32,000 bases of DNA from Pleomorphomonas diazotrophica. GTDB lineage: Bacteria; Pseudomonadota; Alphaproteobacteria; Rhizobiales; Pleomorphomonadaceae. Position 1 is the first letter of the stretch. Each line of letters opens with the position of its first letter. Location: the NCBI RefSeq assembly GCF_002844595.1, contig NZ_PJNW01000016.1:827-32826 (forward strand). Direction: 5' to 3'. The notes beneath the pieces were generated by a model, which was given only the letters and a program-made list of their open reading frames with translations, did no database searches and had not been told where the DNA came from. A program made the translations under genes and the position numbers. Positions 2,823 through 22,195 of the stretch are shown one piece after another.

Positions 2823-4085
2823 TCAGTCGGCCCGCTCCATCGAACGCTCTCCGTTTGCCGACCGACCAGTGGGCGATCGGGCTGCGGCGGAGGCGATGCG
2901 GTTGAGCAAAGCCACCGCGCCGGCCGGAGAGAAGGCATTGTCGACCACCAGTTGGCCGGTGCCGAACAGGGCGATATCGGCCTGCGGCGGCGCAAGCACG
3001 ATGGTCAGCTCCCGCGTCGCCAACGGCAGGCCGCGTTGGTAGACCAGCTCGCGAATACCTGACAGCAGGAAGTCGCCGCCGCGCGCCAGGGTCCCGCCCA
3101 CCACGATCAAGCCTGGATTGAGGATACTGACCACGTCGGCCGTCACCTCGCCGATGACGCGGCCAGCCTTGCGCAGCATCATGATCGCTTCGGGGACTTG
3201 TTGCTCGACGAGCGCGATCACGTCACGGGCATTGTCGGCCTTGAAGCCACGCGTTCGCAAATCGCGCGCGATGGCCCAGCCTGCCGCGCGCGCCTCGACG
3301 CAACCCAGTTTTCCGCAACGGCAGAGGGGCGCATCGGCCGAATCGAACTGGATGTGGCCGATATCGCCCGAGGCGCCATGGGCACCGCGGAAGATCTTGC
3401 CGTCGGCGATGAAGCCGGCGCCGATGCCGGTACCAACCTTGATGAACAGCATGTCGTCGGCTTGCGGAAAGTGCCGGCGGTATTCGTAGAGGGTCATCAG
3501 GTTGACGTCGTTGTCGACATAAACGGGCACGCCGAAATGCTCGACCATCGGTCCGATGATGTCGACGTCGTCCCAGCCCCTCATGATCGAAGGCCCGACG
3601 ACGCGGCCACGCTTGTAATCCACCGGGGCGGGCAGACTTAGCCCTATACCGAGCAGGATACCGTTGCCGCCACCGGCGTCCGACAGCAGGCGGCGGAATC
3701 CGTCGGCAATCTTGTCCAGCGTTGCCGCAGGTCCCTCGGCCACCTCGTAGCGCAACGTGCTCTGGGCGATGACCGCCGGCTCCGGCGACATCAGCGCCAA
3801 ATGAAGGTGCGCCTCGCCGATGTTGGCCACCAGCACATGGCCGGCCCGCCTGTTGACGGCCAACACCCTGGTGGGCCGCCCGCCACTCGGTAGCGTCCGT
3901 GCCGCCTCCTCGATGAGATCGGCGGCGATCAACGCATTCAGTCGCTGGGTCACGGTGACCCGTGACAGGCCCGACCGTTCGAGCAGCGCCGAGCGCGATA
4001 CCGCCTCGCCGGTGGCAATCAGCGAGAAGATGTCGCTGGCGTTGGTCAGCGCGGAGGCGTCGCTGGCGCTGTCTTTGATCGGCAT
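2823..4085 (-). CDS. ROK-family transcriptional regulator (NagC/XylR type)
   Basis: 420-aa ORF with an N-terminal winged HTH (SRSALLERSGLSRVTVTQRLNAL), a sugar-kinase-like fold (IKVGTGIGAG) and the ROK zinc motif CRCGKLGCVE. AGGAG lies about 8 nt upstream of the ATG. Confidence 0.9.
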   Translation of the reverse strand: MPIKDSASDASALTNASDIFSLIATGEAVSRSALLERSGLSRVTVTQRLNALIAADLIEEAARTLPSGGRPTRVLAVNRRAGHVLVANIGEAHLHLALMSPEPAVIAQSTLRYEVAEGPAATLDKIADGFRRLLSDAGGGNGILLGIGLSLPAPVDYKRGRVVGPSIMRGWDDVDIIGPMVEHFGVPVYVDNDVNLMTLYEYRRHFPQADDMLFIKVGTGIGAGFIADGKIFRGAHGASGDIGHIQFDSADAPLCRCGKLGCVEARAAGWAIARDLRTRGFKADNARDVIALVEQQVPEAIMMLRKAGRVIGEVTADVVSILNPGLIVVGGTLARGGDFLLSGIRELVYQRGLPLATRELTIVLAPPQADIALFGTGQLVVDNAFSPAGAVALLNRIASAAARSPTGRSANGERSMERAD

Positions 4086-4161
4086 CCCAATACTCCTGCT
4101 GGGTCACGTGTAGCCAAGAATCGGGGCCGGATAAAGCGTCGAGGAGCGTCGTCGCTATTAC

Positions 4162-4183: not shown

Positions 4184-4312
4184 TGATGTTGACTTTTGAC
4201 CATACCAAGCCTTTGTTCGGATGAGGAGAGAGCTCTGCCGGCCGGAAGCAATGTGGCCGAGGCCGCTTCCAGTATGGGGCGGACGCAGCAGCGTCGATCA
4301 GGGGAGCGGTGC

Positions 4313-5944
4313 ATGACCGGGCGGTATCTCATCGGCCTCGACTTCGGGACGCTGTCAGTACGCGGAGTGCTGATCGACGCCGAGTCGGGCATCGCGATCG
4401 ATTACCATGCCTCACCCTACCGCCATGGTGTCATGAGCGGGTCTTTGGCGGACGGCACGCCCCTGCCCTCCGGCTTCGCCCTGCAAGACGCCCATGATTA
4501 CGTCGTTGCCGCCGAGGAGGTGCTCTGTCGCCTGGGGCAGCATCGCCATATCCTGTCGATCGGCATTGATTTCACGGCCTCGTCTCCCCTGCCGGCGACG
4601 GCCGACGGCACGCCTCTGTCGGCACTGTTGCCAAACGAGCCCCACGCCTATGTGAAGCTCTGGAAACACGCTGCCGCCCAACGCTACGCCGACGCCATCA
4701 ACGCCGCGGGCGGCGCCTTTCTCGACAACTTCGGCGGGCGGCTGTCGGGGGAGTGGCTGCTCGCCAAGGCGGCGCAGGTGGCGAGCGAAGCGCCGACGGT
4801 CTGGGCGCTGACCGAACGCTTCATCGAGGCCGGCGACTGGATGGTCTCGCAGCTTACCGGATGTGAGGCGCGCAATCTCGGTTTCGCCGCCTACAAGGCG
4901 CAATACTCTGCCGCTACCGGCTATCCGGAAGGCATCGTTCCCGGTCTGAACGCCCGCCTTGCTCCGCCACTGAAGGCCGGCAGCCCGGCCGGTGAGCTCA
5001 ACGCCGAGTGGCGCCGAAAAGCCGGCATCAAGGGGCCGGCAGTGGTGGCCGTGGCAGTGATCGACTCGCATGCAGTCTTGCCCGCGGTCGGCGCGGTCGA
5101 GGACGGCATGGCAGCCGGAGCTCTCGGAACATCGGCCGCATATTTGTTTCTAGCCGAGCGTCCGCTCAGCCTGCCTGCCGGTCTCGAAGGCATGGCGCGC
5201 GACGGCTCCCTGCCGGGCTTCTGGCTCCACGAGGCAGGACAAGCGGCCTTCGGCGACCTCCTCGCCTGGTTCGTCCGCACCTTCCCGCGCGGCTCAGATC
5301 TGGCGGCAAGCTTCGCAGCCTACAACGCCGAGGCGGCGATGCTGGAGCCGGGCGACAGTCATCTCGTCGGTCTCGATTGGTGGAATGGAAATCGCGTCCC
5401 CCACGCGGACTCACGGCTTTCGGGACTTCTGATGGGCTTCGGCATGGATACGACGGCCGCTGGCATCTACAGGGCTCTGATGGAGGCGATCTGCTACGGA
5501 ACGCGGCAGGTCATGGAGCTGGCCGCCGCAGGCAGCCTCGGCACGGGGCGGGTCGTCATGACCTCAGGCCTCGCCGAGACCAACCCGCTCTTGTTGACGA
5601 TCATGGCGGATGTCCTCGGCAGGGACATCGAGCTGCCGGAGATCGCGCATGCCACGGCGACCGGAGCCGCCATCCATGGCGCCGTCGCCGCGGGCGTGGT
5701 CGCCGATTTCCGCGACGGCGCCGCACGCTTCGGCGCGCGCTCGCGGCGGGTCTTCCATCCCGACCCGGACCGGTCCAAGCGCTATCAGCCGCTGTTTTCC
5801 ATCTACTGCGAGTTGGCAAGCCTCACGCCTGTGCAGGCGGCGATGCGGCGTATCGGACCGCAGAGGCGCGCACCTGACAACGCGCCGAACGCCATCGCCG
5901 GCCCATCGCTTGAAGATGGCAAACTGACGGCTACTTTTGGATAA
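4313..5944 (+). CDS. araB: FGGY-family carbohydrate kinase, ribulokinase (AraB)-like
   Basis: In-frame part of ORF 4196..5944. I chose ATG 4313 because GGGGAG lies 7 nt upstream. The N-terminus YLIGLDFGTLSVRGVLID...LPSGFALQDAHDYV closely resembles Bacillus-type AraB (IGVDFGTLSGRAVLV...LPRDWALQHPADYI). Length is 543 aa. Confidence 0.7.
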   Translation: MTGRYLIGLDFGTLSVRGVLIDAESGIAIDYHASPYRHGVMSGSLADGTPLPSGFALQDAHDYVVAAEEVLCRLGQHRHILSIGIDFTASSPLPATADGTPLSALLPNEPHAYVKLWKHAAAQRYADAINAAGGAFLDNFGGRLSGEWLLAKAAQVASEAPTVWALTERFIEAGDWMVSQLTGCEARNLGFAAYKAQYSAATGYPEGIVPGLNARLAPPLKAGSPAGELNAEWRRKAGIKGPAVVAVAVIDSHAVLPAVGAVEDGMAAGALGTSAAYLFLAERPLSLPAGLEGMARDGSLPGFWLHEAGQAAFGDLLAWFVRTFPRGSDLAASFAAYNAEAAMLEPGDSHLVGLDWWNGNRVPHADSRLSGLLMGFGMDTTAAGIYRALMEAICYGTRQVMELAAAGSLGTGRVVMTSGLAETNPLLLTIMADVLGRDIELPEIAHATATGAAIHGAVAAGVVADFRDGAARFGARSRRVFHPDPDRSKRYQPLFSIYCELASLTPVQAAMRRIGPQRRAPDNAPNAIAGPSLEDGKLTATFG

Positions 5945-5978
5945 AAATATACAAATATAGATCGTTTATGTTTGACTT
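5942..5978 (+). promoter_or_regulatory. Second copy of the AT-rich motif plus TTGACT -35-like hexamer upstream of the binding-protein gene
   Basis: TAAAAATATACAAA at 5942-5955 differs from 4169-4182 at one position. ATGTTTGACTT at 5968-5978 corresponds to ATGTTGACTT at 4186-4195. Motif-to-TTGACT spacing differs by 10 bp between the two copies. Confidence 0.35.
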
Positions 5979-6068
5979 CATCCATAATAGGTGTCAAATC
6001 GAGGTGGCCTCGGAGGAAGGCCAGGAGCCGACGAGGAACCGGCTCCGAACATAAACCGGGAGGAAACG

Positions 6069-7091
6069 ATGCAGGCTTCTCGTCACGGCAGGTCTCGCCA
6101 TGCGATCTCGGAGTTCACGGCGGGCTGCGCCGCATTTGCGCTCGTCTTCGGCCTCGCCGGCGCAGCCGGTGTCTCCGGCGCCCAGGCTGCCGACGTTATC
6201 GTCGGTCTGGTGACCAAGACCGAGGTCAATCCATTCTTCGTCAAGATGCGTCAGGCGGCCGAGGCCGAGGCAAAGGCCAAGGGGCTGACGCTGATCGCCC
6301 GCGCCGGCAAGTTCGACGGCGACAATGAGGGTCAGGTCGCAGCCATCGAAGACCTGATCTCGGCCGGCGCCAAGGGCATTCTGGTGACGCCCAACAACTC
6401 CTCCGGCATGCTCGGCGTCATCAAGAAGGCACGCGACGCCGGCGTGCTGGTGATTGCGCTGGATACGGCCACCGATCCGGCCGACGCGGTCGATGCCACC
6501 TTCGCCACCGACAACTTCCAGGCCGGCGTGCAGCAGGGCGCCTATGCCAAGGCGGCGCTCGGCGACAAGACGCCGGTGATTGCCATGCTCGACGGCACGC
6601 CCGGTGGCACGGTGGACACCTTCCGCCACGACGGCTTCCTGAAGGGCTTCGGCATTGCCGAAGGCGATCCGGCCATTGCCGGCGCCGCCATCACCAACGG
6701 CGCCCAGGACAAGGGCCAGATCGGGATGGAAAACCTTCTGTCCAAGAACGGCGACATCAACGTCGTCTATACCATCAACGAACCGGCGGCGGCCGGCGGC
6801 TACCAGGCCCTGAAGTCCTTCGGCAAGGAAAAGGACGTGATCCTGACCTCGATCGATGGCGGCTGCGCCGGCGTGCGCAATGTCCAGGCGGGGGTCATCG
6901 CGGCAACCGTGATGCAGTTCCCCTACAAGATGGCGTCGATGGGCGTCGACGCGGTGGCCGAATATGCCGCGTCGGGCAAGAAGCCGTCCGGTTTCGTCAA
7001 CACCGGCTCCTATCTGATCACCGACAAGCCGATGCCGGGGCTCGAGTCCAAGGACAGCGCATGGGGCCTCGAGAACTGCTGGGGTGACTGA
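6069..7091 (+). CDS. Sugar ABC transporter periplasmic binding protein (PBP1/CUT2, FrcB-like)
   Basis: In-frame part of ORF 5991..7091. ATG 6069 is preceded by GGGAGGA. Signal peptide ...GVSGAQA/AD. VTKTEVNPFFVKM and ALDT...ATFATDN are typical of ribose/fructose-type binding proteins. The C-terminal ...ENCWGD resembles FrcB. Confidence 0.8.
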   Translation: MQASRHGRSRHAISEFTAGCAAFALVFGLAGAAGVSGAQAADVIVGLVTKTEVNPFFVKMRQAAEAEAKAKGLTLIARAGKFDGDNEGQVAAIEDLISAGAKGILVTPNNSSGMLGVIKKARDAGVLVIALDTATDPADAVDATFATDNFQAGVQQGAYAKAALGDKTPVIAMLDGTPGGTVDTFRHDGFLKGFGIAEGDPAIAGAAITNGAQDKGQIGMENLLSKNGDINVVYTINEPAAAGGYQALKSFGKEKDVILTSIDGGCAGVRNVQAGVIAATVMQFPYKMASMGVDAVAEYAASGKKPSGFVNTGSYLITDKPMPGLESKDSAWGLENCWGD

Positions 7092-7103
7092 CCTCCTCCC
7101 AGT

Positions 7104-7143
7104 CCCGATGGTGCGCATTCGGCAGCGAAGGCGCGCCATCGGG
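7104..7143 (+). other. Intra-operon stem-loop after the binding-protein gene
   Basis: cccgatggtgcgc (7104-7116) pairs with gcgcgccatcggg (7131-7143) in a 13-bp stem with one G-U pair and a 14-nt loop. Confidence 0.5.
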
Positions 7144-7209
7144 TGCCGGCAGGCGTCTGGCGTCGCCGTTCTTCGGCTTCCCCCTGAGCCGACCGGCTGA
7201 TGCCTTCAC

Positions 7210-7240
7210 GGACCGGCGGGCTGACAGCGTCCGCCGGTCC
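7210..7240 (+). other. Second intra-operon stem-loop
   Basis: ggaccggcgg (7210-7219) and ccgccggtcc (7231-7240) form a perfect 10-bp stem with an 11-nt loop, followed by gctttc. Confidence 0.5.
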
Positions 7241-7271
7241 GCTTTCACGATACGTCAGTTGCGAGGTCCCC

Positions 7272-8257
7272 ATGAGCAGCGCAACCCCGTCAGCCCCCGA
7301 GGCCAGCGCCGGATTGCTTTCGCGCGTCAAGACCATACCCTCGGTGGGACCGGTCCTGGTTCTCCTGGCGTTTTGCCTGGTGTTCGCCGTCACCAACCCG
7401 CGCTTTCTTGCCCCACACAATCTGTCGATCATCCTGCAGCAGACCATCGTGGTAGGTACCCTGGCCATCGGCCAGACACTGGTGATCCTCACCGCCGGCA
7501 TCGATCTCGCCGTCGGCGCCATCTGCGTGCTCGGAACCATCGTCGCCGGAAAACTCGTCAATCTCGGCTACGATCCGATGCTGTCTATGCTGTTCGCAGT
7601 GGTCCTCTGCACCCTCTCGGGGCTTGTCGCGGGAACGCTGGTGAGCCGGCTCGACCTGCCACCGTTCATCGTGACTCTTGGCACACTCGGCATTCTGACG
7701 GCCGCCTTACGCCTCATCTCGCAGGGCGGTGCCTTTCCAGTGCAGGACAGCTTTCTCGGCCTGACCGGGAACACCTTCCGGGTCGGAAGCTTCGTTCTCA
7801 CCTATGGCGTGCTGGCCATGCTGCTGCTTTACGCGGCGGCCTGGTATCTTCTCAACGAGACGCGCTGGGGGCGACATGTCTACGCCATCGGCAACAACCC
7901 CGAGGCAGCACGACTGGTCGGCATTCCGGTTCGGCGACACCTCCTGCAGGTCTATGCGCTGGCCGGACTCATCTACGGCATCACCGCCTGGCTCGCCCTC
8001 GGCCGCATTCCCAACGCCGATCCCAACGCCCTACAGACCGCCAATCTCGATTCCATCACCGCCGTGGTGATCGGCGGTACCAGCCTGTTCGGCGGGCGCG
8101 GCGGCCTTGTGGGAACCTTGATCGGCGCCCTGATCGTCGGCGTTCTTCGCAACGGCCTGACGCTGGCCGGCATCGACCCGCTCTGGCAGGACCTCGTCAC
8201 CGGCATCCTGGTGATCCTGGCCGTGGCCTTCGACCAGCTTTCCCGCAGGAGGCGCTG

Positions 8258-8258
<1 letters not shown>
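7272..8258 (+). CDS. Sugar ABC transporter permease (CUT2, FrcC/RbsC-like)
   Basis: In-frame part of ORF 7200..8258. I chose ATG 7272 (MSSATPSAPE...). Multiple TM segments, and GGTSLFGGRGG is typical of the RbsC family. Confidence 0.85.
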
Positions 8259-9058
<800 letters not shown>

Positions 9059-9066
9059 TGGCCGGG

Positions 9067-9894
9067 TCAGCCGGCATCCGCCTCGCCGTCGTCGGGCGCG
9101 ACGATGAGCAGCGTGCCGGCGGCCTCAAGCGCCGCCTGGATATCGGACGGCGGCGGCGTGTCCGTAACCAGCGCGAAGACCCGCTCGAGCGAAGCCACCT
9201 TGGCGAAGGCATGACGACCGAACTTGCGACTGTCGGCCAGGACGATGGTCCGCCGCGCCGCCTCGATCATCGCCGCCATCATGGTGGCCTCGGACAGGTG
9301 GCTGGTCCAGAAGCCGGTGGCGTCGACGCCACCAACGCCGATGACGGCCGTGTCGGCGGCAATGGCTCCGGTGCCGACGAAGCCGACCGGACCGACCGTC
9401 ACCTGGGCGCCGGTGCGGATTTCGCCCCCGAGCAGATAGAGGTTCAGGATGGCGGCCGGCGGCACGACCGGCGGCAATCCGAGATTGTTGGTGACGATGG
9501 TCAGGCGCCGACGCATCTCCAGCGCTGCGGCAAAAGCGAGCGTGGTGGTACCGCCATTGACCAGCAGCGTCTCGCCATCGGCGATCAGCTCCGCCGCCGC
9601 CTGCCCGATGCGTGTTTTTGCCGCATGATGCGACTTCATGCGGAGATCGAAGGGCGTATCGGCGGTAGCCATGCTGGACGAAGGAAGCGCACCGCCATGG
9701 ATCCGGCTGACCAGACCCTGCTCGGCCAGGATGTCGAGATCGCGCCGGATGGTATCGAGCGACACGTCGAAACGCGCGCTCATATCCGTCACGGTGATCT
9801 GCCCCAACTGTTGGGCAAGACGGAGAATATCGGCCCGCCGTCGCGCCGGCAGCGTCGCGTCCGAGCCCGCCTTTTCCACGTCTTCCGTCATCAT
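9067..9894 (-). CDS. DeoR/GlpR-family transcriptional regulator
   Basis: 275-aa ORF with an N-terminal HTH (ITVTDMSARFDVSLDTIRRDLDIL) and a DeoR C-terminal sensor domain (LVNGGTTT, VIGVGGVD). It is divergent from the operon that starts at 10107. Confidence 0.9.
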   Translation of the reverse strand: MMTEDVEKAGSDATLPARRRADILRLAQQLGQITVTDMSARFDVSLDTIRRDLDILAEQGLVSRIHGGALPSSSMATADTPFDLRMKSHHAAKTRIGQAAAELIADGETLLVNGGTTTLAFAAALEMRRRLTIVTNNLGLPPVVPPAAILNLYLLGGEIRTGAQVTVGPVGFVGTGAIAADTAVIGVGGVDATGFWTSHLSEATMMAAMIEAARRTIVLADSRKFGRHAFAKVASLERVFALVTDTPPPSDIQAALEAAGTLLIVAPDDGEADAG

Positions 9895-10004
9895 CGCCGC
9901 CTGGACCGCTGTTGCACATATTCAGATTTGATCGAACCCTAGCATACCGCATTTGACGTCACAAAGTGGCACAAAGACGCATAATGACGCAAAATATCGT
10001 GCTG

Positions 10005-10043: not shown

Positions 10044-10106
10044 GCCAGCTCATGAGAGAAGTTTCGCCAATCGGACGAAACCCCGGAGCACAAGGGAGTG
10101 AAACGC

Positions 10107-11423
10107 ATGACTGACAAAGACGATCATGTCGGCAAGCCCATGGGTGTCGGGCGCCGTCAATTCCTGAAAGTGGCTGGTCTCACCACCGGCGGCGTGCTGG
10201 CCGCACCGGCGATCCTGAAGCTCACGTCGGTCGCCTCCGCGGCGGACCGCACCAACATCACCTTCGCCAGCGCGAAGTTCTTCGGCAAGCGCACCGTCGC
10301 CGAGATGGTGGATGTGTTCAACCAGTCCCAGAGCCGCATCCTCGTCCGCTACGACGAGCTGCCGCCGCCGAGTTCCTCGACGGAAGTCCATCAGGGCTTG
10401 GTGCAGCGCCTCGCCAAGAAGGACGGCTCGCCCGACGTCTTCACGCAGGACGTCGTCTGGATCGCCGAATTCGCTGGCGCCGGCTGGGCTCTGCCGCTCG
10501 ACGAGTATGTGAGCGCCGACGAGGCGGGAGCCTATTTCCCCGGCGTGCTGGCGGCCTGCAAATGGCAAGGCAAGCTGACCGCCCTGCCCTGGTATGTCGA
10601 CAGCGGCATGCTCTACTACCGAAAAGATCTCGTCTCCAAGGCGCCGGAAACCTGGGACGAGCTGGTCGCCGCCGCGACGGACCTCATGAAGGCAGGCAAG
10701 GCCAAGATCGGCTTCTCCTGGCAGGCCAAGCAGGCCGAGGTGCTGATCTGCGATCTCGTGGAGTTCGTGACCTCCAACGGCGGCAGCATCCTCGGCGACG
10801 ACGGCAAGACCGTTCACATCGCCGACGACGCGGCGATCGAGGCCGTGCAGTTCATGTATGACACCATCGAGAAGTACAAGATCAGCCCGCCGGACGTCCG
10901 GAGCTGGGACGAGGAGCCCTCGCGCACGCCGTTCACCGGCGGCGACGTCGCCTTCCTGCGCAACTGGTCCTACGTTTACTCCATCTGCCAGGACAAGGCG
11001 GCCTCCTCGGTGGTCGACAAGGTCGGCGTCGTGCCGCTGCCGCATTTTGCCAACGGCAAGAGCGCTGCCTGCCTCGGCGGCTACCAGTATGGCGTCAATG
11101 CCTCGACCAAGAACCGGGACGCGTCCGTCGAGTTCCTGAAATGGCTGTCGAGCCCGGAGACGCAGCTGCTGTTCGCCACCGAACTCGGTCTCGCTCCGAG
11201 TCGGCCGGCCGTGTTCGACAGCGCCGAACTCGGCAAGGCGCAGCCGTTCATGCAGACGCTGAAGCCGGTGTTCGTCGGCGCCACGGCGCGTCCGGTCACG
11301 CCGAAATACTCTCAGGTCTCCCTGGCGCTGCAGTCGGCCGTTTCCAAGGCCGTCACCAACGGCAACGTCGCCGACGCGCTCAAGGACGCCAAGGCCAAGC
11401 TTGAGGGCATCGTCGGCGCATGA
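10107..11423 (+). CDS. ABC transporter extracellular solute-binding protein, family 1 (CUT1), Tat signal
   Basis: ORF 10098..11423. ATG 10107 is preferred because AAGGGAG lies about 9 nt upstream; GTG 10098 is also possible. Twin-arginine motif GRRQFLKVAG and a MalE-like fold (DVFTQDVVWIAEFAGAGW, WYVDSGMLYYRKD). Confidence 0.85.
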   Translation: MTDKDDHVGKPMGVGRRQFLKVAGLTTGGVLAAPAILKLTSVASAADRTNITFASAKFFGKRTVAEMVDVFNQSQSRILVRYDELPPPSSSTEVHQGLVQRLAKKDGSPDVFTQDVVWIAEFAGAGWALPLDEYVSADEAGAYFPGVLAACKWQGKLTALPWYVDSGMLYYRKDLVSKAPETWDELVAAATDLMKAGKAKIGFSWQAKQAEVLICDLVEFVTSNGGSILGDDGKTVHIADDAAIEAVQFMYDTIEKYKISPPDVRSWDEEPSRTPFTGGDVAFLRNWSYVYSICQDKAASSVVDKVGVVPLPHFANGKSAACLGGYQYGVNASTKNRDASVEFLKWLSSPETQLLFATELGLAPSRPAVFDSAELGKAQPFMQTLKPVFVGATARPVTPKYSQVSLALQSAVSKAVTNGNVADALKDAKAKLEGIVGA

Positions 11424-12367
11424 CCACGCTTCCGTCAGCCGGCCTCACGGCCGGCAACCGACGGAGCAAACGACTGACGCAGAGGAGCCGTGCCGAACGG
11501 TGGGCGCCTCTGCTCTTTCTCCTGCCCGCGGTCCTCACCCTCATCACCGTCTCCGTCTATCCCGTTCTCGACGGCATGCGCCTTTCCTTGCGCAACACCA
11601 TGCTGTCGACCCAGGAAGACGACTTCGTCGGCCTCGCCAACTATGTCCGGCTCACCGGCGATCCGCAATTCTGGTCGGCCTGGCAGCACACCATGCTGTT
11701 TACCGCCGCATCGACGCTGCTCGAGACGGTGATCGGCATGGCCATGGCGCTGGTTCTCTACGAGACCTTCAAGGGCCGGGGCTGGGTGAGGGCCGCGATG
11801 CTGGTTCCCTGGGCCATTCCCACCGTCGTGACCTCCAAGATGTTCGGCTGGCTGTTCGACGGCCAGCACGGCGTGGTCAACTGGTTGCTGAGGCAAGCCG
11901 GCCTGATCGACGGCTACGTCAACTGGTATGGCGACAGCCAGACCGCGCTTCTCACCATCATCATCGCCGACGTCTGGAAGACGACGTCCTTCATGGCGCT
12001 GTTGCTGCTGGCCGGTCTGCAAACGGTGCCGCATTCGCTGGTCGAGGCCGCACGGATCGACGGCGCGGGTTCCTGGCAGTGCTTCTGGTCGATCCGGCTG
12101 CCGCTGTTGTTCACGACGCTGCTGATCGCCGGCATGTTCCGCGCCCTCGACGCCTTCCGCATCTTCGACCTCGTCTACGTGCTGACGGGCGGCGGGCCGG
12201 CCGACTCCACCGAGGTTCTGTCGACCCTGTCCTACAAGGTCCTCTTCTCGGGGCTCGACTTCGGCTACGGCAGCGCGCTCTCGGCGGCCATGTTCATCAC
12301 CGAGGCGATCATCGCGCTGGGCTTCGGTCTTTTCATCGTTCGCCGCATGCGGCGCGACAACGGCTGA
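11420..12367 (+). CDS. Carbohydrate ABC transporter permease (MalF/UgpA-like)
   Basis: 315-aa ORF. ATG 11420 overlaps the binding-protein TGA (ATGA). EAA-loop region EAARIDGAGSWQCFWSIRLPLL. Confidence 0.9.
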   Translation: MTTLPSAGLTAGNRRSKRLTQRSRAERWAPLLFLLPAVLTLITVSVYPVLDGMRLSLRNTMLSTQEDDFVGLANYVRLTGDPQFWSAWQHTMLFTAASTLLETVIGMAMALVLYETFKGRGWVRAAMLVPWAIPTVVTSKMFGWLFDGQHGVVNWLLRQAGLIDGYVNWYGDSQTALLTIIIADVWKTTSFMALLLLAGLQTVPHSLVEAARIDGAGSWQCFWSIRLPLLFTTLLIAGMFRALDAFRIFDLVYVLTGGGPADSTEVLSTLSYKVLFSGLDFGYGSALSAAMFITEAIIALGFGLFIVRRMRRDNG

Positions 12368-12377
12368 GGAGGAAACC

Positions 12378-13223
12378 ATGCTGTCTTCCTGGCGCACCCA
12401 GCTCCTGATCACCCGGATCGCGCTCTACGTGGCCTCGGCCCTGATCGTCGTCTGGTCGGTGGCGCCCTTCCTGTGGCAGGTGTCGACGTCCTTCCAGGAG
12501 GATCGACTACTGTCGGCGCCAACACCGAGTTTCCTGCCCTGGCCGGGCACCCTCGACCATTTCCGCAACATCTTCGTCGAGAAAGAGTTCCACCTCTACA
12601 TAGTCAACTCGGCCATCGTGGCGGGATTGACCACGCTGTTCTGTCTCGCCATCGGCGGAGCCGCCGCCTTCGCTCTGGCCCGTCTGCGCGTCTACTACCG
12701 CTTCGGCATCCTGGCGCTGATCCTGTCGGTGTCGATGTTCCCGCAGATCGCCATCGTCGCGCCGCTCTATCTCGCCGCGTCGGCGCTCGGGCTGATGAAC
12801 ACCTACACCATCCTCGTCATCATCTACCTGTCGCTCGGCCTGCCGCTGGTGATCTGGGTGCTGTTCGGCTACTTCCAGACCATTCCGCGAGAGATCGACG
12901 AGGCCGCCATCATCGACGGCGCCGGGCCGTTGCGCCTGATGATCTCGGTCATCCTGCCGATGTCGCTGCCCGGCTTCGTCACCACCGGCCTCCTCGCCTT
13001 CATCATGGCCTGGAACGAGTTCATGTTCGCGCTCGCCTTCACCTCGGGCGTCGATCGCCAAACCATTCCCGTCGGCATCGCCAACTTCACCAACCTCTAC
13101 TACGTCCCCTGGGGCGACCTCGCCGCCGCCTCCGTGGTGGTGACGCTGCCGCTGGTCCTGCTGGTGCTCGGCTTCCAGCGCTGGATCATCCAGGGGCTGA
13201 CGCAGGGCGCGGTCAAGGAATGA
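12378..13223 (+). CDS. Carbohydrate ABC transporter permease (MalG/UgpE-like)
   Basis: 281-aa ORF with GAGGAGGA upstream. EAA loop DEAAIIDGAGPLRLMISVILPM. Confidence 0.9.
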   Translation: MLSSWRTQLLITRIALYVASALIVVWSVAPFLWQVSTSFQEDRLLSAPTPSFLPWPGTLDHFRNIFVEKEFHLYIVNSAIVAGLTTLFCLAIGGAAAFALARLRVYYRFGILALILSVSMFPQIAIVAPLYLAASALGLMNTYTILVIIYLSLGLPLVIWVLFGYFQTIPREIDEAAIIDGAGPLRLMISVILPMSLPGFVTTGLLAFIMAWNEFMFALAFTSGVDRQTIPVGIANFTNLYYVPWGDLAAASVVVTLPLVLLVLGFQRWIIQGLTQGAVKE

Positions 13224-14542
13224 TCGCCATGAGCATCCCCCATGCCAAACCCACGGCGTCGATCGATTGGGCCCGCGCCTATGACCGGCTCGTTGACGGG
13301 ATACCGGCTGTCGTTGCGGACGCGACAAGGCTGGTCACCGGCTTTGCCGTCTGCCTCGATCGGCGGATCGACCTGCACGCCGTCGCACCAATCCTCGCCG
13401 ATCGCCCGGAAGTCGGCGCCCAGCGCCTGTTCGCCGAGTTGATGGCCCGCGCCAAGGCCGGTCGCGGCGGTGAAATGCTGGTAGGCGACTGGCCCGGCGG
13501 GCCATCCTTCTTCGATCCGCATACCTTGCCGGGCGGCACGGCGATCGGCGGCACGTCGGCCCAGGCGGCCTGGACGCTGGCGGCGATCGGAGCGCCCTCC
13601 CTGCTCGCTCTCGGCGAGGTCGGGCCGGAGGAGCTCGCCGCGCTGCACGCCGGCATCGGATTGGCCGAAAGCGAGACGACGGTCGGCTCGCCGCGCCGCC
13701 GCTGGCCGGCGCTTTGCGACAAGCCGGCGCACTACATCGTCGAGTATACCGCCGGCCACCCCCTGCCCGGCTTCGTTGCCGAACGGTCGACCCGCATCAT
13801 CGTCCGTTTCGCCGACGAAGCCCTGCATGAAGACGCCCTGTTCGACCGTTGGGTCGCGGCGAATGGACATCAGTTGCGCGCCGGTCTGCTGTCATCTCCG
13901 AATACCATTCCGCTTGCCGAGCTGCCGGTCGCCCTTGCGCGCCTGTCAGGGGCGGCACGGGCCTGGCGCAGGTCCGGCTTGTCGGTCGTCCACCTCGAAC
14001 TCGGCGCCTATCCCTGGCCCGGAACGCTCGATGCGACGCTGGAAAGCCTGGCGCCCGAGGTCACGTCGATCGGTCTCAATCAGAACGAGCTGCGCGGCCT
14101 GGTGCCGGGCGATGATCCGGTCGAGCAGGCGGACGCGCTGTCGCGGTGGCTCGGCGTCGATCGCCTGGTCGTTCACGCCGACGGTTGGGCGCTTGCCGTC
14201 ACCCGCGGCGACGCAAGGGTGGAGATGGACGCGCTCGCCATGGGCTGCCTGCTCGCCGCCTCGCGTGCCGAGGCCGGCCAGCCGTCGTCGCGACCACGTA
14301 TCCCGCATGGAGCGCGCTTCGATCCGCCGCCTGCTCCGCCGGTGTCGCGGCTGCCGGATGGTCGCCAGATCGTCTGCGTCGCCGCTCCCTATCTCGAACG
14401 CCCCGCCTCGACCGTCGGCCTCGGCGACAGTTTTACCGCCGGCTGCCTCCTCATTCATTCCATCGTCGATCACCAGCCCGTTCTCGGCTTGGCCGATTTG
14501 GCCGCGCCGGCTGGCTCCGAAACAGACTTACGGAGACCGTAA
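13220..14542 (+). CDS. ADP-dependent glucokinase/phosphofructokinase-family sugar kinase (ribokinase superfamily), substrate unknown
   Basis: C-terminal 440 aa of ORF 12473..14542. ATG 13220 overlaps the permease TGA 13221-13223. It can be aligned block by block with Pyrococcus ADP-GK from memory: GFAVCLDRRIDL vs LLGYNTNIDA, TAIGGTSAQAA vs LRMGGQAGIMA, VVHLELG (HxE, 13991-13999), IGLNQNEL (NxxE, 14078-14089), LVVHADGWALAVT vs IHFHTYGYYLALT, STVGLGDSFTAG (GxGD, 14417-14428) vs STVGIGDTISSS. Confidence 0.75.
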   Translation: MIAMSIPHAKPTASIDWARAYDRLVDGIPAVVADATRLVTGFAVCLDRRIDLHAVAPILADRPEVGAQRLFAELMARAKAGRGGEMLVGDWPGGPSFFDPHTLPGGTAIGGTSAQAAWTLAAIGAPSLLALGEVGPEELAALHAGIGLAESETTVGSPRRRWPALCDKPAHYIVEYTAGHPLPGFVAERSTRIIVRFADEALHEDALFDRWVAANGHQLRAGLLSSPNTIPLAELPVALARLSGAARAWRRSGLSVVHLELGAYPWPGTLDATLESLAPEVTSIGLNQNELRGLVPGDDPVEQADALSRWLGVDRLVVHADGWALAVTRGDARVEMDALAMGCLLAASRAEAGQPSSRPRIPHGARFDPPPAPPVSRLPDGRQIVCVAAPYLERPASTVGLGDSFTAGCLLIHSIVDHQPVLGLADLAAPAGSETDLRRP

Positions 14543-15618
14543 TGGCACCCGTTTCCCTCAGGTCCGTCACCAAGGCCTATGGCTCATTCGAGGTGATCCA
14601 CGGCATCGATCTGGAGATCGAGGACGGTGCCTTCGTCGTCCTGGTCGGCCCGTCGGGCTGCGGCAAGTCGACGCTGCTCCGAATGATCGCCGGCCTTGAA
14701 ACGATCAGTGGCGGTGAGGTGGTCATCGACGGCGAGGTGATGAACGATGTGCCGCCCAAGCACCGCGACATTGCCATGGTGTTCCAGAACTACGCGCTTT
14801 ACCCGCATATGACGGTGGCGCAGAACATGGGCTTCTCGCTACGCCTCACCAAGGTGCCCCAGGCGGAAGCGGCGGAAAAGATCAGGGCCAGCGCCGACAT
14901 CCTCGGCCTCACCGACCTGCTCGACCGCTATCCCCGCCAGCTGTCCGGCGGTCAGCGCCAGCGCGTCGCCATGGGCCGGGCGATCGTCCGCAACCCCAAG
15001 GTCTTCCTGTTCGATGAGCCGCTCAGCAACCTCGACGCTGCCCTGCGCATGCAGATGCGCGTCGAGATCGCCGAACTGCACCAGAAGCTCGGTACCACCA
15101 TGATCTACGTGACGCACGATCAGGTGGAGGCGATGACGCTCGCCACCAAGATCGCCGTCGTCAACAAGGGCAGGCTCGAACAGGTGGCGCCGCCGGTTCG
15201 TCTCTATGAGCGGCCGCAGAACCTCTTCGTCGCCCGGTTCATCGGCGCACCGCAAATGAACATTCTGCCCGCCCGCCTTGCCGGCGCCGCTGAGGCGCGC
15301 CTTGGCGATGGAAGCGTGATCGCCCTGCGGCGATCGATGCCGCTTGGCGAAGGGAGCGGCGTGAGCGTCGGCATCCGCCCCGAAGCCCTGCTGCTTTCAG
15401 AAGACGGACCGCTCGGTGGCCGCGTCACCCTCGCCGAGCATCTCGGCGGCCTGACGCTCGTCCATATCGCCCTCACCGACGGAACGCCGGTGGTTCTACA
15501 GGCGGTCGGAGCTCCCACCGTCGCAGTGGGCGACCTCGTCCGCCTGCGCATCGATCCGGCTGGATTGCATCTGTTCGATCCAGAGGGGCGCCGCATCTCC
15601 ACCCCCGGCGAAAGCTGA
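14542..15618 (+). CDS. Carbohydrate ABC transporter ATP-binding protein (MalK/UgpC-like)
   Basis: C-terminal 358 aa of ORF 14146..15618. ATG 14542 overlaps the TAA of the kinase gene (TAATG). Walker A GPSGCGKST, LSGGQRQRVA, Walker B FLFDEPLSNLD, and a C-terminal MalK-type regulatory/TOBE domain. Confidence 0.9.
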   Translation: MAPVSLRSVTKAYGSFEVIHGIDLEIEDGAFVVLVGPSGCGKSTLLRMIAGLETISGGEVVIDGEVMNDVPPKHRDIAMVFQNYALYPHMTVAQNMGFSLRLTKVPQAEAAEKIRASADILGLTDLLDRYPRQLSGGQRQRVAMGRAIVRNPKVFLFDEPLSNLDAALRMQMRVEIAELHQKLGTTMIYVTHDQVEAMTLATKIAVVNKGRLEQVAPPVRLYERPQNLFVARFIGAPQMNILPARLAGAAEARLGDGSVIALRRSMPLGEGSGVSVGIRPEALLLSEDGPLGGRVTLAEHLGGLTLVHIALTDGTPVVLQAVGAPTVAVGDLVRLRIDPAGLHLFDPEGRRISTPGES

Positions 15619-15689: not shown

Positions 15690-16694
15690 ATGTTTCGCAT
15701 GAATGCCAAGCTCGCCAAGATCCGGGCCGGCAACTACGCCAAGGGCGACTTCATCATCGCCGACGCCAAGGACGGCGACATGTCCAACCCTATCCCCGGC
15801 ACCGGGCCGATCCGCGACAAGGACGGCAAGTTCGTCCGTTTCCGGACGCGAGCCGAGTTCCTGGAGATGATCACCGATCTGATCCGCCAGGACCTGCTCG
15901 ACATCATGCTGGTGTCCTGTTCCAACCTTGAGCTGCTGCAGGAGGCCGGTGCCTTCAAGAACAGCCCGGTGCGGCCGGCCTTCCGCGCCAACGACACCAC
16001 CGACATCTGGGGCGCCCGGCCCAACGGCTATGGCAAGCTCGGCCCGTCGCGCCCGTTCCGCACCCCGTCGCTGAAGCGGATATCCGAGGCCAAGCTCGGA
16101 AACCTCGGCCTTTACTCGATCACCTTCGTCAACGACATCGAGGCCGACTTGAGGTCGCTCGAAGCCTTCAGCGAGTTCCGCGAGGACGCGGCCAAGAACG
16201 GCATCGAGTATTTCCTGGAAGTGTTCAATCCCAACGTCGAGTGCGGCATCGCGCCGGCGGACGTCGGCTCGTTCGTCAATGACAACCTCGCCCGCTGCCT
16301 GTCGGGCGTGCTGCGCGCCGACCGGCCGCAGTTCCTGAAGTATCCCTACAACGGCGCCAAGGCGCTGGAGGAACTGGCCTCCTATGACCCGCAGCTGGTG
16401 GTGGGCGTGCTCGGCGGTGGTGCCGGCACCACGCGCGACACCTTTGAGCTGCTGTTCCAGGCCGAGAAATACGGCGCTCGCGTCGCCCTGTTCGGCCGCA
16501 AGATAAATCTCGCCGAAAGCCAGCTCGACATGGTCCGCCACATGCGCGCGGTGGCCGACGGCGAGATGAGGCCGCTCGAAGCCGTCAGGTCCTACCACGC
16601 CGTGCTCAAGGAAAAGGGCATCTCCCCGGTCCGCAGTCTCGACGACGACAGCATCGTCACCGAGGCGGTCCTGAAGGCCGCGGCCTCCGCCTGA
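15690..16694 (+). CDS. Class I aldolase-like TIM-barrel protein (DeoC/DhnA-FbaB archaeal type), substrate unknown
   Basis: 334-aa ORF with GGAG upstream. QFLKYPYNG (Lys codon 16338-16340) resembles the Schiff-base segment GADIVK(x)xYTG of archaeal/DhnA aldolases. VGVLGGGAG..D....GARVALFGRKI resembles NSGGAAG...GGMGLILGRKAF of E. coli FbaB. N-terminal FIIADAKDGD lies where the DHG substrate-binding strand is expected. Confidence 0.6.
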   Translation: MFRMNAKLAKIRAGNYAKGDFIIADAKDGDMSNPIPGTGPIRDKDGKFVRFRTRAEFLEMITDLIRQDLLDIMLVSCSNLELLQEAGAFKNSPVRPAFRANDTTDIWGARPNGYGKLGPSRPFRTPSLKRISEAKLGNLGLYSITFVNDIEADLRSLEAFSEFREDAAKNGIEYFLEVFNPNVECGIAPADVGSFVNDNLARCLSGVLRADRPQFLKYPYNGAKALEELASYDPQLVVGVLGGGAGTTRDTFELLFQAEKYGARVALFGRKINLAESQLDMVRHMRAVADGEMRPLEAVRSYHAVLKEKGISPVRSLDDDSIVTEAVLKAAASA

Positions 16695-19643: not shown

Positions 19644-20639
19644 ATGACACGGAGGGCGGAGGAGGTCATCTACCCCACTGACGCGGGGCTTTACTGCGTG
19701 CCGGGGGACTTCTACATCGACCCGCTCCGTCCTGTTCCCCGCGCCCTCGTCACACACGGCCATGCCGATCACGCCCGTCCCGGCCATGGCGCAGTGATGG
19801 CCACCCGCGAGACGCTCGACATCATGGCGATCCGCTACGGCGACGATTTCGCCGGTAGCCGCCAGATCGCCGAGGGACCGGTCCGGATCGGGGCCGTGAC
19901 GGTGAGCTTCCATCCGGCGGGCCATGTGCTCGGCTCGAGCCAGATCCTGATCGCCCCCGATCACGGCCCACGCATCCTGATCTCGGGCGATTACTGTCGC
20001 ACGCCGAACCCGGTCTGCCAGCCTTGGGAGCCGGTTAACTGCGATATCTTCATCACGGAGGCGACCTTCGGCCTGCCGATCTTTCGCCACCCAGATCCCA
20101 TGACCGAGGCCGGACGGTTATTGACCAGCATGGCCGAGTTTCCGGGCCGCCCTCACCTGATCGGGGCCTATGCCCTCGGCAAGGCGCAGCGCGTGATCGC
20201 GTTGGCGCGGGCGGCGGGCCATCATGGCCCCATTGCCATTCATGGCGCGCTGAAACGCCTCTGCGACTATCACGTCGACCAGGGGATTGACCTTGGCCCG
20301 CTGGTTCCGGCAACCGATCCCGGCGAGGCGCAACTGATTTTGGCGCCGCCCTCGGCCTTTGCCTCACCCTGGGTGCAGCGCTTCCGCGATCCGGTTCTCT
20401 CCTACGCCTCCGGCTGGATGACCGTCCGCGCCCAAGCCCGCCGGCGCGGCATCGAGCTACCGCTGGTGATCAGCGACCATGTCGACTGGCCGCAACTGAC
20501 CGCTACCATCCGCGAACTCGCCCCACAGGAGGTCTGGATTACCCATGGCGCCGAGGACGGCCTGACGCGGTGGTGCGAGATCGAGGGCATTTCCTCCCGT
20601 CCGCTCAGGCTGATCGGCTATGAGGACGAGCCGGAATGA
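19644..20639 (+). CDS. Ligase-associated DNA damage response exonuclease (metallo-beta-lactamase/beta-CASP fold)
   Basis: 331-aa ORF with MBL motif VTHGHADHA. It starts 9 nt after the DUF883 stop, and its stop overlaps the ligase ATG (ATGA at 20636-20639). This pairing is typical of the bacterial Lhr/ligase/exonuclease/PdeM gene set. Confidence 0.8.
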   Translation: MTRRAEEVIYPTDAGLYCVPGDFYIDPLRPVPRALVTHGHADHARPGHGAVMATRETLDIMAIRYGDDFAGSRQIAEGPVRIGAVTVSFHPAGHVLGSSQILIAPDHGPRILISGDYCRTPNPVCQPWEPVNCDIFITEATFGLPIFRHPDPMTEAGRLLTSMAEFPGRPHLIGAYALGKAQRVIALARAAGHHGPIAIHGALKRLCDYHVDQGIDLGPLVPATDPGEAQLILAPPSAFASPWVQRFRDPVLSYASGWMTVRAQARRRGIELPLVISDHVDWPQLTATIRELAPQEVWITHGAEDGLTRWCEIEGISSRPLRLIGYEDEPE

Positions 20640-22195
20640 AAGCCTTTGCCCGCCTCTTGGAGCGCCTGGCCTTCACGCCCGCCCGCAATGCCAAGCTCAC
20701 CATCCTCTCGCATTATTTCCAGACCACGCCCGATCCCGATCGCGGCTATGCCCTGGCGGTTCTGACGGGAACGCTGGATCTCAGACAGGTGTCGCCCTCG
20801 CTCCTGAAACGTCTGGTCTCCGAGCGCGTGGACGAGCAGCTTTTTCGTCTGTCCTATGATTTCGTCGGCGACCTGGCCGAGACCATCGCGCTGATCTGGC
20901 CAACGGACGCGGAGGCCAGAGCGGAGGAGGTTTCCCTCTCGCAGGCGGTGACGGTGCTGCGCGAGACCGGCAAGCTGGCGCTGCCCGGCGTGATCGCCGA
21001 CCTTCTCGACCGTCTGACCCCACCCGAACGGCTGGCCCTCCTGAAGCTTGCGACGGGCAATCTCAGGATCGGCGTCTCGGCGCGGCTCACCCACACGGCG
21101 CTGGCGATGGGCACTTCCCGCAGCAGCGAGGAGATCGAGGAGATCTGGCACGGCCAAGCTGCTCCTTTCCTGCCGCTCTTCACCTGGCTCGCCGGCGGCG
21201 CGTCCCCTGCCGTGGCACTCGCACCGTTTCGCCCGGTGATGCTCGCCACCCCGATCACCCCGGAGGAGCTCGCGCCGCTCGACCCCGCTGCCCATGTTGC
21301 CGAGTGGAAGTGGGACGGCATCCGCGTCCAGGCGGTTGCCGAGGGTGGACTGCGCAAACTCTATACCCGCGCGGGAGAGGAGATCGGCACCGCCTTCCCC
21401 GACATCATCGAGGCCATGACCTTCGAGGGCGCGGTGGACGGGGAACTGCTAATCCGCCGCGGCGAGGAGATCGCGCCTTTCGGCGACCTGCAAAAGCGGC
21501 TCGGCCGCAAGTCGATCAGCCGGACCATGCTGCAAAGCCATCCGGCGGCGCTCATGCTCTACGATATACTGACCTGGGAGGGCGAGGACCTGCGCCCGCT
21601 GCCGCTTTCCGCCCGGCGCGCGCGCCTGGAATCCGCGCAGTTCGACAGTCCTCGAATAGGCCTGTCGCCGCTTCTCCCATTCGAAACCTGGGAAGAGCTC
21701 ACCCGGATACGCGCCGAGCCCCATTCCCCGGTGATCGAGGGCGTGATGATCAAGCGCCTGGACACGCCCTATATCGCCGGTCGGCCGCGCGGTCCCTGGT
21801 TCAAATGGAAACGCGATCCGATGGTGATCGATGCGGTGCTGCTTTATGCGCAGTCCGGGCATGGGAAACGCTCGGGTTTCTACAGCGATTTCACCTTCGG
21901 GCTCTGGGAGGGTGAAGAGCTGATCCCAGTCGGCAAGGCCTATTTCGGCTTCACCGATGAGGAACTGCGGGAACTCGATCGCTTCGTGCGCAAGAACACC
22001 GTCCAGCGCTTCGGCCCCGTGCGCCAGCTGGCACCCAACCTGGTGGTCGAGGTGGCGTTCGAGGGGCTGAATGTCTCGCAGCGTCACCGCTCCGGCATCG
22101 CGATGCGCTTTCCCCGCATCTCGCGCATCCGAACCGACAAGCCCGCTTCCGAAGCCGACCGGCTCGAGACGCTCAAGGCCATGCTGCGATCATAG
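20636..22195 (+). CDS. ATP-dependent DNA ligase (ligase-associated damage-response type)
   Basis: 519-aa ORF. Adenylation motif I is EWKWDGIR (Lys codon 21308-21310). Motifs FEGAVDGELL, EGVMIKR and KWKRD match nucleotidyltransferase motifs III, IV and V. OB domain at the C-terminus. Confidence 0.9.
   Translation: MKAFARLLERLAFTPARNAKLTILSHYFQTTPDPDRGYALAVLTGTLDLRQVSPSLLKRLVSERVDEQLFRLSYDFVGDLAETIALIWPTDAEARAEEVSLSQAVTVLRETGKLALPGVIADLLDRLTPPERLALLKLATGNLRIGVSARLTHTALAMGTSRSSEEIEEIWHGQAAPFLPLFTWLAGGASPAVALAPFRPVMLATPITPEELAPLDPAAHVAEWKWDGIRVQAVAEGGLRKLYTRAGEEIGTAFPDIIEAMTFEGAVDGELLIRRGEEIAPFGDLQKRLGRKSISRTMLQSHPAALMLYDILTWEGEDLRPLPLSARRARLESAQFDSPRIGLSPLLPFETWEELTRIRAEPHSPVIEGVMIKRLDTPYIAGRPRGPWFKWKRDPMVIDAVLLYAQSGHGKRSGFYSDFTFGLWEGEELIPVGKAYFGFTDEELRELDRFVRKNTVQRFGPVRQLAPNLVVEVAFEGLNVSQRHRSGIAMRFPRISRIRTDKPASEADRLETLKAMLRS

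Follow-up and report, generated by a model that had tools for sequence, protein, structure and literature searches.

Sugar kinases that take adenosine diphosphate (ADP) as phosphoryl donor are a textbook feature of the modified glycolysis of archaea, with one animal enzyme in addition. Several described catabolic routes pair a sugar-type kinase with an enzyme that acts on its product. In the LacC/LacD pair (tagatose-6-phosphate kinase and class I tagatose-1,6-bisphosphate aldolase) and the YihV/YihT pair (a kinase for sulfofructose together with sulfofructose-1-phosphate aldolase), C1 of a ketohexose derivative receives a phosphate from a kinase of the ribokinase superfamily, and a class I aldolase then frees dihydroxyacetone phosphate. 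During inositol catabolism IolC (5-dehydro-2-deoxygluconokinase) acts on the hydroxymethyl group beside a keto group and IolJ or a DUF2090 protein (5-dehydro-2-deoxyphosphogluconate aldolase; the two activities also occur fused, NCBIfam NF047869) again frees dihydroxyacetone phosphate. Here we analyse a 32,000-nucleotide stretch of Pleomorphomonas diazotrophica (contig NZ_PJNW01000016.1, positions 827 to 32,826 of the forward strand; hereafter the window) in which a divergent DeoR regulator gene is followed by genes for an SBP_bac_1 binding protein, two permeases, a kinase of the ADP-dependent sugar kinase family PF04587, an ATPase and a protein that we call orf334 (Table 1). Judged by sequence profiles and predicted fold, the kinase is a true bacterial homologue of the archaeal ADP-dependent sugar kinases, and across genomes its conserved partner is an aldolase-like enzyme, not the transporter. 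We propose that the kinase and orf334 form a two-enzyme catabolic module, controlled by DeoR and fed by a CUT1 importer, that would phosphorylate a sugar and then split it, a reading to which we give a probability of roughly 0.55.

The proposed likeness to LacC/LacD and YihV/YihT lies in this order of steps, and YihV/YihT shares a DeoR-type regulator as well. A LacD-like aldolase that accompanies the kinase in other genomes is a sequence relative of LacD and YihT. However, the kinase here belongs to PF04587 and not to PfkB, and orf334 matches LacD at the level of fold only. Sulfoquinovose catabolism by the sulfo-Embden-Meyerhof-Parnas (sulfo-EMP) route was considered because of the DeoR regulator, a SmoF-like binding protein and a match of the LacD-like partner to a sulfohexulose-1-phosphate aldolase, and was rejected because the window lacks the isomerase, the sulfoquinovosidase and the sulfolactaldehyde enzymes of that route; the Paracoccus sulfoquinovose pathway uses a PfkB kinase. 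The kinase and aldolase steps of inositol catabolism resemble the proposal too, and IolC is the nearest relative of the PfkB kinase that replaces this enzyme in sister clusters, as a DUF2090 protein is of the LacD-like partner, although these similarities are weak and IolB, IolD and IolE are absent here. The Lsr system for autoinducer-2 likewise combines an importer, a sugar-type kinase (LsrK) and an enzyme with the LsrF fold acting on the phosphorylated product, but LsrF works as a thiolase after the isomerase LsrG, whereas here there is no LsrG, the kinase is of another family and the match of orf334 to LsrF is marginal (E 0.02). The inositol, N-acetylgalactosamine and Lsr pathways were rejected since each is a partial analogy whose signature genes are absent.

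PF04587 (ADP_PFK_GK) matches the kinase with 57.2 bits (E 1.6e-15; gathering cut-off 27 bits) over profile positions 86-429 of 430, and the same domain is carried by 160/160 of its homologues. PF00294 (PfkB) gave no match at E <= 0.01. An AlphaFold2 (AF2) model built on 24 homologues (pLDDT 92.2) consists of a ribokinase-like large domain and the enlarged alpha/beta lid typical of ADP-dependent glucokinases (GK) and phosphofructokinases (PFK). When this model was compared with the PDB using Foldseek, the top 22 matches were all ADP-GK/PFK chains (E 1e-16 to 1e-22, TMq 0.59-0.77), and ribokinase-type ATP-dependent kinases appeared only from rank 23 (E ~1e-8, TMq 0.35-0.5). A profile of the kinase clade matched 14 distinct PDB sequences, all of them ADP-dependent kinases, the best at 2e-19. 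The homology that a sequence-only reading of this DNA had proposed is therefore upheld by structural comparison, and the kinase does not cluster with PfkB or ribokinase enzymes. P. furiosus GK (1UA4), P. horikoshii PFK (1U2X) and the ancestral enzymes AncMT (5K27) and AncMsPFK (6XIO) share its two-domain fold, with a template modelling (TM) score of up to 0.77. Identity to the archaeal structures is 14-19%, and the kinase fails the equivalog models for ADP-GK (NF010642 and NF010641, scoring 39.4 and 22.4 bits where 387 and 554 are required) and ADP-PFK (TIGR02045, 18.8 bits against 408). By these scores it belongs to a deep bacterial clade and is orthologous to neither archaeal GK nor archaeal PFK; further differences are an Ala at the N32 position, the missing K179 equivalent, some 30 fewer residues between NxxE and GxGD, and a place in a DeoR-regulated catabolic operon with importer and aldolase rather than in central glycolysis. 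The glucokinase or phosphofructokinase role that the sequence-only reading had implied does not agree with these scores (39 and 19 bits against 387 and 408) or with the conserved aldolase partner.

Residue roles were assigned by aligning the clade profile to PDB sequences and combining this with mutational and structural data (PMC7948494), and conservation was taken from an alignment of 24 clade members (37-81% identity). In the characterised enzymes the Asp of GxGD is the catalytic base, HxE and NxxE bind Mg-ADP, and D36 and R206 of AncMsPFK are the family-wide sugar-binding Asp and the Arg that contacts the ADP beta-phosphate (PMC7948494). All three motifs of the kinase lie at exactly the coordinates given before and map onto the archaeal active-site motifs. 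D47, E85, GG110-111, R189, R192, H258, E260 and G400-D403 are invariant in the alignment, E290 and H319 are nearly so, and N287, with which NxxE begins, gives way to S in more distant members. The family-wide residues D36 and R206 are thus kept, as D47 and R192, and the ribose-contacting His is kept as H319; the third, N32, is replaced by A43. A Glu at AncMT E72/AncMsPFK E90 is conserved in glucokinases and bifunctional enzymes only, and K179 is critical for binding the phosphate of fructose 6-phosphate (PMC7948494). The Glu is present as E85, in a column where the wild-type and E72A rows of AncMT differ at exactly that position. No residue of the kinase corresponds to K179 in the alignment, and a His, as in GK, occupies the position of N181, the other residue with which PFK binds that phosphate. 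The segment P-x-S-T-V-G-L-G-D that frames the nucleotide is conserved in the clade. The archaeal-like order and spacing of the motifs claimed in the sequence-only reading stands for HxE to NxxE (29 residues against 28 in P. furiosus GK) and fails for NxxE to GxGD, where about 32 residues fewer intervene (113 against 145). Taken by its motifs the catalytic apparatus is intact, and by the alignment the sugar pocket looks glucokinase-like but altered.

Pleomorphomonas species have the closest genomes (77-84% identity), which places the host in the alphaproteobacterial Hyphomicrobiales. A scan of species-representative genomes recovered 228 stretches encoding a relative, mostly from Alphaproteobacteria with some from Verrucomicrobiota (Chthoniobacterales), and a search of 1.84 billion representative proteins gave only 815 matches at E <= 1e-3, of which 158 reach <= 1e-30. 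A next tier of ~450-residue proteins is intermediate towards ADP-GK. NCBI gives plasmid copies from Agrobacterium, Rhizobium, Sinorhizobium and Aureimonas the label 'ADP-dependent glucokinase/phosphofructokinase', so with 228 relatives and an existing annotation the singularity implied by the sequence-only reading was overstated. Its suggestion that any transfer from archaea would be old fits both the 14-19% identity and the span of the clade over Alphaproteobacteria and Verrucomicrobiota. The literature searches, for which many subscription papers were out of reach, found no characterised proteobacterial ADP-dependent sugar kinase. The kinase diverges much faster than all other genes of the operon: in P. 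oryzae it is 84% identical against 92-96% for its neighbours, and in an Ancalomicrobiaceae metagenome-assembled genome (MAG) 50% against 61-80% for the other operon genes (80% for orf334). Orthologues of the binding protein (58-96% identity) occur in many kinase loci. In the Chthoniobacterales loci (L017, L024, L029, L030 and others) the binding protein and permeases are 58-73% identical to those of the window and the kinase 37-41%, and a LacD/DUF2090-type aldolase takes the place of orf334. This suggests that the transporter-kinase block has moved between phyla. A gene resembling shikimate dehydrogenase is present in three of these loci (L024, L029 and L030).

Gene context was counted in 79 related genome loci, with genes called by a simple script based on G+C content at third codon positions (GC3) and backed by tblastn. 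The order permease-kinase-ATPase is found in 9/79 loci, all from Pleomorphomonas, Ancalomicrobiaceae and related MAGs, and a permease lies directly upstream of the kinase in 29 of the 79. In other loci the kinase is divergent or distant from transport genes, or is divergent from orf334 and followed by a short-chain dehydrogenase/reductase (SDR) and DeoR, or lies in yet another arrangement. The sequence-only reading had taken the gene order to imply obligate, stoichiometric coupling of uptake and phosphorylation; with the order in only nine loci this is not sustained. Co-transcription of the kinase with the transporter is likely in the Pleomorphomonas lineage, and says nothing about stoichiometry. 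A DeoR homologue is near the kinase in 58/79 loci, orf334 in 52/79 and a PF01791 aldolase of LacD/DUF2090 type in 21/79. The two aldolase types never occur together (0/79), one of them is present in 73/79, and of the six loci with neither, four are cut off on one side within ~1.2 kb of the kinase. In NCBIfam the LacD-like partner exceeds the cut-off of the 'tagatose 1,6-diphosphate aldolase' subfamily; among solved structures it comes closest to a sulfohexulose-1-phosphate aldolase (8.7e-51) and next to LacD and YihT. In 20 loci an SDR resembling polyol dehydrogenases is found with the kinase. Roseibium holds the minimal cluster, made up of importer, DeoR, kinase and orf334. Beside the R. leguminosarum homologue, and in that locus only, lie genes for a class II aldolase and an aldose epimerase.

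The orf334 protein has no Pfam match even at E 10, including PF01791 (DeoC/LacD), and no significant sequence match in the PDB. Its family comprises at least 7971 homologous sequence clusters, nearly all named 'hypothetical'. The AF2 model (pLDDT 80.9) retrieved LacD, LsrF, ADH synthase and archaeal fructose-bisphosphate aldolase in Foldseek (probability 1.00, E 2e-9 to 1e-7). In a comparison of the family profile with LsrF, the invariant K217 falls on the catalytic K203, and the chain of the LsrF K203A mutant differs at exactly the K217 column. Towards the C terminus, a GGG...GRK segment lines up with the end of the aldolase barrels that binds phosphate. The model and alignments point to a new class I aldolase-like TIM barrel with K217 as candidate Schiff-base lysine. 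That orf334 and the LacD-like partner do the same job is suggested by their mutual exclusivity and their fold, since the profile-profile comparison between them was not significant. GatZ is related to metal-dependent class II aldolases. We considered orf334 as a tagatose-6-phosphate 4-epimerase and rejected this because the Sinorhizobium epimerase is described as GatZ-like and the fold of orf334 is class I; for the Agrobacterium epimerase the source does not state the family. The tagatose kinase of this Agrobacterium/Sinorhizobium pathway is a sugar kinase homologous to an E. coli Nissle enzyme, and we presume that it is of PfkB type.

In 80 metagenomic loci anchored on orf334, a PfkB kinase (PF00294) was present in 43 and a PF04587 kinase in 11, with no locus holding both. 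Where gene order could be resolved PfkB directly follows orf334, in most cases at a distance of -4 to 22 nt, and none (0/82) of the loci anchored on the kinase holds the PfkB of these clusters. It follows that kinases from two distantly related families serve one and the same aldolase. Of the four possible pairings three are seen (orf334 with either PF04587 or PfkB, and the LacD-like aldolase with PF04587), and a single two-step function would be expected to show such interchangeable kinases and aldolases. The PfkB partner is closer to IolC and ribokinase than to the 1-phosphofructokinase (1-PFK) hexose-phosphate kinase subfamily. The Shinella locus that we inspected is of the orf334-PfkB type, and orf334 homologues also occur in Rhizobium gallicum, R. 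etli and Sinorhizobium medicae. Clusters of the PfkB type usually start with a ROK regulator and an RbsB-like ATP-binding cassette (ABC) importer, sometimes with an FGGY kinase, followed by the orf334 paralogue. On an A. fabrum plasmid, pAtN33_94 (L163), the genes ahead of orf334 encode a CUT1 importer, a GlpD-like dehydrogenase and an FGGY kinase, and a SorC-type regulator comes after it; no kinase of PF04587 or PfkB type is annotated within 9 kb of orf334 there, nor in the 19-kb stretch. This layout is consistent with a ketose 1-phosphate as substrate of orf334 and would be a further route to a ketose phosphate whose phosphate neighbours the carbonyl. It also resembles the logic of erythritol-type clusters, with a kinase followed by a dehydrogenase.

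Under the reading that we prefer, the imported sugar would be bound in the glucokinase-like pocket formed by D47, E85, G110-G111 and H171, after oxidation of a polyol to a keto-sugar by the SDR dehydrogenase in sister lineages. D403 would deprotonate the primary hydroxyl beside the carbonyl, which in a ketose is at C1 and in a keto-acid sugar at the corresponding end, and the terminal phosphate of Mg-ADP, held by R192, H258/E260, N287/E290 and H319, would be transferred to it. A Schiff base formed by orf334 through K217 would then cleave the product to dihydroxyacetone phosphate and an aldehyde. Going by how regulators of its family commonly act, DeoR probably senses the phosphorylated intermediate. 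We infer both the phosphorylated position and the identity of the sugar, the acceptor being probably a hydroxymethyl group next to a keto group. ADP is somewhat favoured as the donor because the nucleotide-contacting residues and the P-x-S-T-V-G-L-G-D segment are conserved, and because all characterised PF04587 enzymes, to our knowledge, use a nucleoside diphosphate.

Several observations weigh against this reading. The binding protein resembles disaccharide binders and is a poor fit for a free keto-monosaccharide; among solved structures it comes nearest to 1EU8, the trehalose/maltose-binding protein of T. litoralis (2.9e-75), and to Thermotoga MalE3 and SmoF. FGGY kinases in or beside some clusters, including the one in this window, make a route through a bisphosphate possible. 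In the kinase, the N32 equivalent is lost to A43, the nucleotide loop that precedes GxGD has two residues fewer than its archaeal counterparts, and an Ala, A324, aligns with Y357 of T. litoralis GK, a residue that we take to be important for excluding ATP and use as a caveat only. Free exchange with PfkB kinases weighs against the use of ADP. The link of orf334 to aldolases is a model of pLDDT 81 with TM scores of 0.55-0.61 and a weak profile match (E 0.02) to LsrF, a thiolase and not an aldolase, and hhalign found no significant similarity between orf334 and the LacD-like partner family.

The shortened loop, the Ala at the Y357 position and the replacement by PfkB kinases of the ATP-dependent type in the same module also speak for an enzyme with the same role in the pathway that has switched its donor to ATP or another nucleoside triphosphate, as does an identity of only 14-19% to characterised ADP-dependent enzymes. 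We regard such a switch as unlikely though a serious contender, given that R192, H319, HxE, NxxE and the P-x-S-T-V-G-L-G-D segment are conserved and that the characterised members of PF04587, as far as is known to us, all use nucleoside diphosphates. A second alternative, our main rival reading though one that we consider rather improbable, is that the kinase is a PFK-like second kinase in a LacC/LacD-type (tagatose-6-phosphate-like) route, adding a C1 phosphate to a ketose 5- or 6-phosphate made by an FGGY or housekeeping kinase, the bisphosphate then being cleaved to two triose phosphates. In its favour, the partner aldolases come nearest to tagatose-1,6-bisphosphate aldolases, R196 lines up with R212 of the PFK and bifunctional type, and in 7 loci an FGGY kinase is found next to orf334 and the kinase; a cluster with a ribulokinase-like FGGY gene borders the operon both here and on an A. 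tumefaciens pAt plasmid, and in other genomes the FGGY cluster is joined to orf334 and PfkB. However, most kinase loci and several orf334-PfkB loci hold a single kinase, a K179 equivalent is missing while the GK-type Glu and His are present, and the PfkB partner is nearer to IolC/ribokinase than to 1-PFK. That the kinase is an ordinary ADP-dependent glucokinase or hexokinase acting on glucose from an imported disaccharide agrees with E85 and H171, with the trehalose/maltose-like binding protein and with the NCBI name of the clade, but is very improbable in view of the ADP-GK equivalog score (39 bits against 387), the loss of the N32 equivalent, the lack of any glycoside hydrolase or phosphorylase in the operon or among the gene families recurring in related loci, and the aldolase pairing in 73/79 loci, which glucose 6-phosphate as product would leave unexplained.

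If the two-step reading is correct and ADP is the donor, related soil- and plant-associated bacteria would run one pathway in an ATP-driven (PfkB) and an ADP-driven (PF04587) version, a natural experiment on why cells choose ADP as phosphoryl donor. The kinase clade would be a dedicated catabolic kinase exchangeable with PfkB and not a stray glycolytic enzyme, and orf334 would give a first functional handle on a large family of hypothetical proteins. A conserved, uncharacterised kinase-aldolase pathway with interchangeable parts is of more interest than coupling to a transporter. The fullest version of this claim, which we hold tentatively and with some doubt, is that the clade is the first case of a functional ADP-dependent sugar kinase in aerobic bacteria, acting on a keto-sugar other than glucose in an undescribed pathway, with orf334 as founder of a new class I aldolase family that has thousands of members and lacks a Pfam model. 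Cultured hosts for genetic work are at hand in Pleomorphomonas oryzae DSM 16300, A. tumefaciens pAt strains, Shinella, Rhizobium gallicum/etli and Sinorhizobium medicae.

The open reading frame (ORF) of the kinase translates without internal stops. Its first ATG, at 13220, overlaps the permease stop codon (TGA, 13221-13223) as ATGA, and its own stop codon (TAA, 14540-14542) overlaps the ATG of the ATPase gene (14542) as TAATG. The true start is, on sequence grounds, probably ATG 13229, because M4 is invariant in the 24-sequence alignment, the closest homologue (P0001, 96% identity) has 437 residues, and a Shine-Dalgarno-like AAGGA stands at 13215-13219, 9 nt upstream. A start at 13229 leaves a 5-nt gap to the permease stop, and the ATGA may then be an untranslated arrangement. 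Of the overlapping stop and start codons that had been described on both sides of the kinase, those on the ATPase side stand and those on the permease side probably give way to the gap. The composition of the gene, which had been called native, is near-native with a mild deviation: GC content is 0.696, where the four flanking transporter genes have 0.643-0.657, and GC3 is 0.80 against 0.83-0.92 in the other plus-strand operon genes; first and second codon positions are richer in GC than in the neighbours and third positions poorer. Two antisense ORFs of high GC3 lie opposite the kinase, at 13100-13870 (-, 256 aa) and 13946-14473 (-, 175 aa), and are typical artefacts of high-GC DNA; we read them as such because homologues, Pfam match and predicted fold all come from the plus frame.

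A promoter scan found 2 sites against 0.8 expected, so the one between the DeoR and binding protein genes is only suggestive, and a terminator scan found sites no more numerous than chance, so it is uninformative on the boundaries of the operon. The binding protein carries a twin-arginine-like signal (RRQFLK). We take the T. litoralis mal cluster also to have an enzyme gene between its permease and ATPase genes. The adjacent upstream cluster (2823-9058) is orthologous to the leading part of the PfkB-type clusters, its binding protein, ATPase and permease being 89%, 87% and 82% identical to theirs, and the A. tumefaciens pAt plasmid has the PF04587/orf334 cluster beside the same ROK/FGGY/RbsB-type cluster in rearranged form. 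This cluster and the kinase operon may form one catabolic island.

Table 1. Features of the window and residues of the kinase discussed in the text (positions in the window; residue numbers count from ATG 13220).
Feature	Position	Strand	Assignment
ROK regulator	2823..4085	-	adjacent upstream cluster (Pfam, NCBIfam)
Ribulokinase-like FGGY kinase	4196..5944		adjacent upstream cluster (Pfam, NCBIfam)
RbsB-like binding protein	5991..7091		adjacent upstream cluster (Pfam, NCBIfam)
Permease	7200..8258		adjacent upstream cluster (Pfam, NCBIfam)
ATPase	8255..9058		adjacent upstream cluster (Pfam, NCBIfam)
DeoR/GlpR-family transcriptional regulator	9067..9894	-	Pfam HTH_DeoR and DeoRC; divergent from the operon
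Promoter-like site between DeoR and binding protein genes	9958..9985	+	consensus scan, 9/12 matches
Periplasmic solute-binding protein of CUT1-type sugar ABC importer	10098..11423	+	Pfam SBP_bac_1
ABC permease 1	11420..12367	+	Pfam BPD_transp_1
ABC permease 2	12378..13223	+	Pfam BPD_transp_1
PF04587 (ADP-dependent sugar kinase family) protein	13220..14542	+	440 aa; probable true start ATG 13229 (437 aa)
A43			AncMsPFK N32 position; family-wide Asn lost
C45			AncMsPFK N34 position; Asn lost
D47	13358..13360	+	equivalent of sugar-binding Asp, AncMsPFK D36/PfuGK D34
E85	13472..13474	+	aligned to AncMT E72/AncMsPFK E90
H171			at N181 position; His in glucokinases
R192	13793..13795	+	AncMsPFK R206 equivalent; predicted ADP beta-phosphate contact
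R196	13805..13807	+	aligned to PFK-type AncMsPFK R212; needs a 2-residue gap
HxE motif, H258-L-E260	13991..13999	+	predicted Mg-ADP binding, by alignment to archaeal VHLEF
NxxE motif, N287-Q-N-E290	14078..14089	+	predicted Mg-ADP binding, by alignment to NEVE/DETE/DEAE
H319			aligned to AncMsPFK H360; predicted ribose contact
GxGD motif, G400-L-G-D403	14417..14428	+	aligned to GIGD/GLGD; D403 predicted catalytic base
MalK/UgpC-type ABC ATPase	14542..15618	+	Pfam ABC_tran, TOBE_2 and OB_MalK; NCBIfam UgpC subfamily, 469 bits
orf334, predicted class I aldolase fold	15690..16694	+	no Pfam family; candidate Schiff-base Lys K217 at 16338-16340

Elsewhere in the window, genes for a family 21 glycosyltransferase and a calcineurin-like metallophosphoesterase at the left edge (508-2489, -) are apparently unrelated to the sugar clusters. 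Downstream of the operon, a 331-aa ORF without Pfam match overlaps the start of a gene for an ATP-dependent DNA ligase (DNA_ligase_A_N/M/C; 19644-22195), and the two may be a ligase-associated DNA-damage-response pair.

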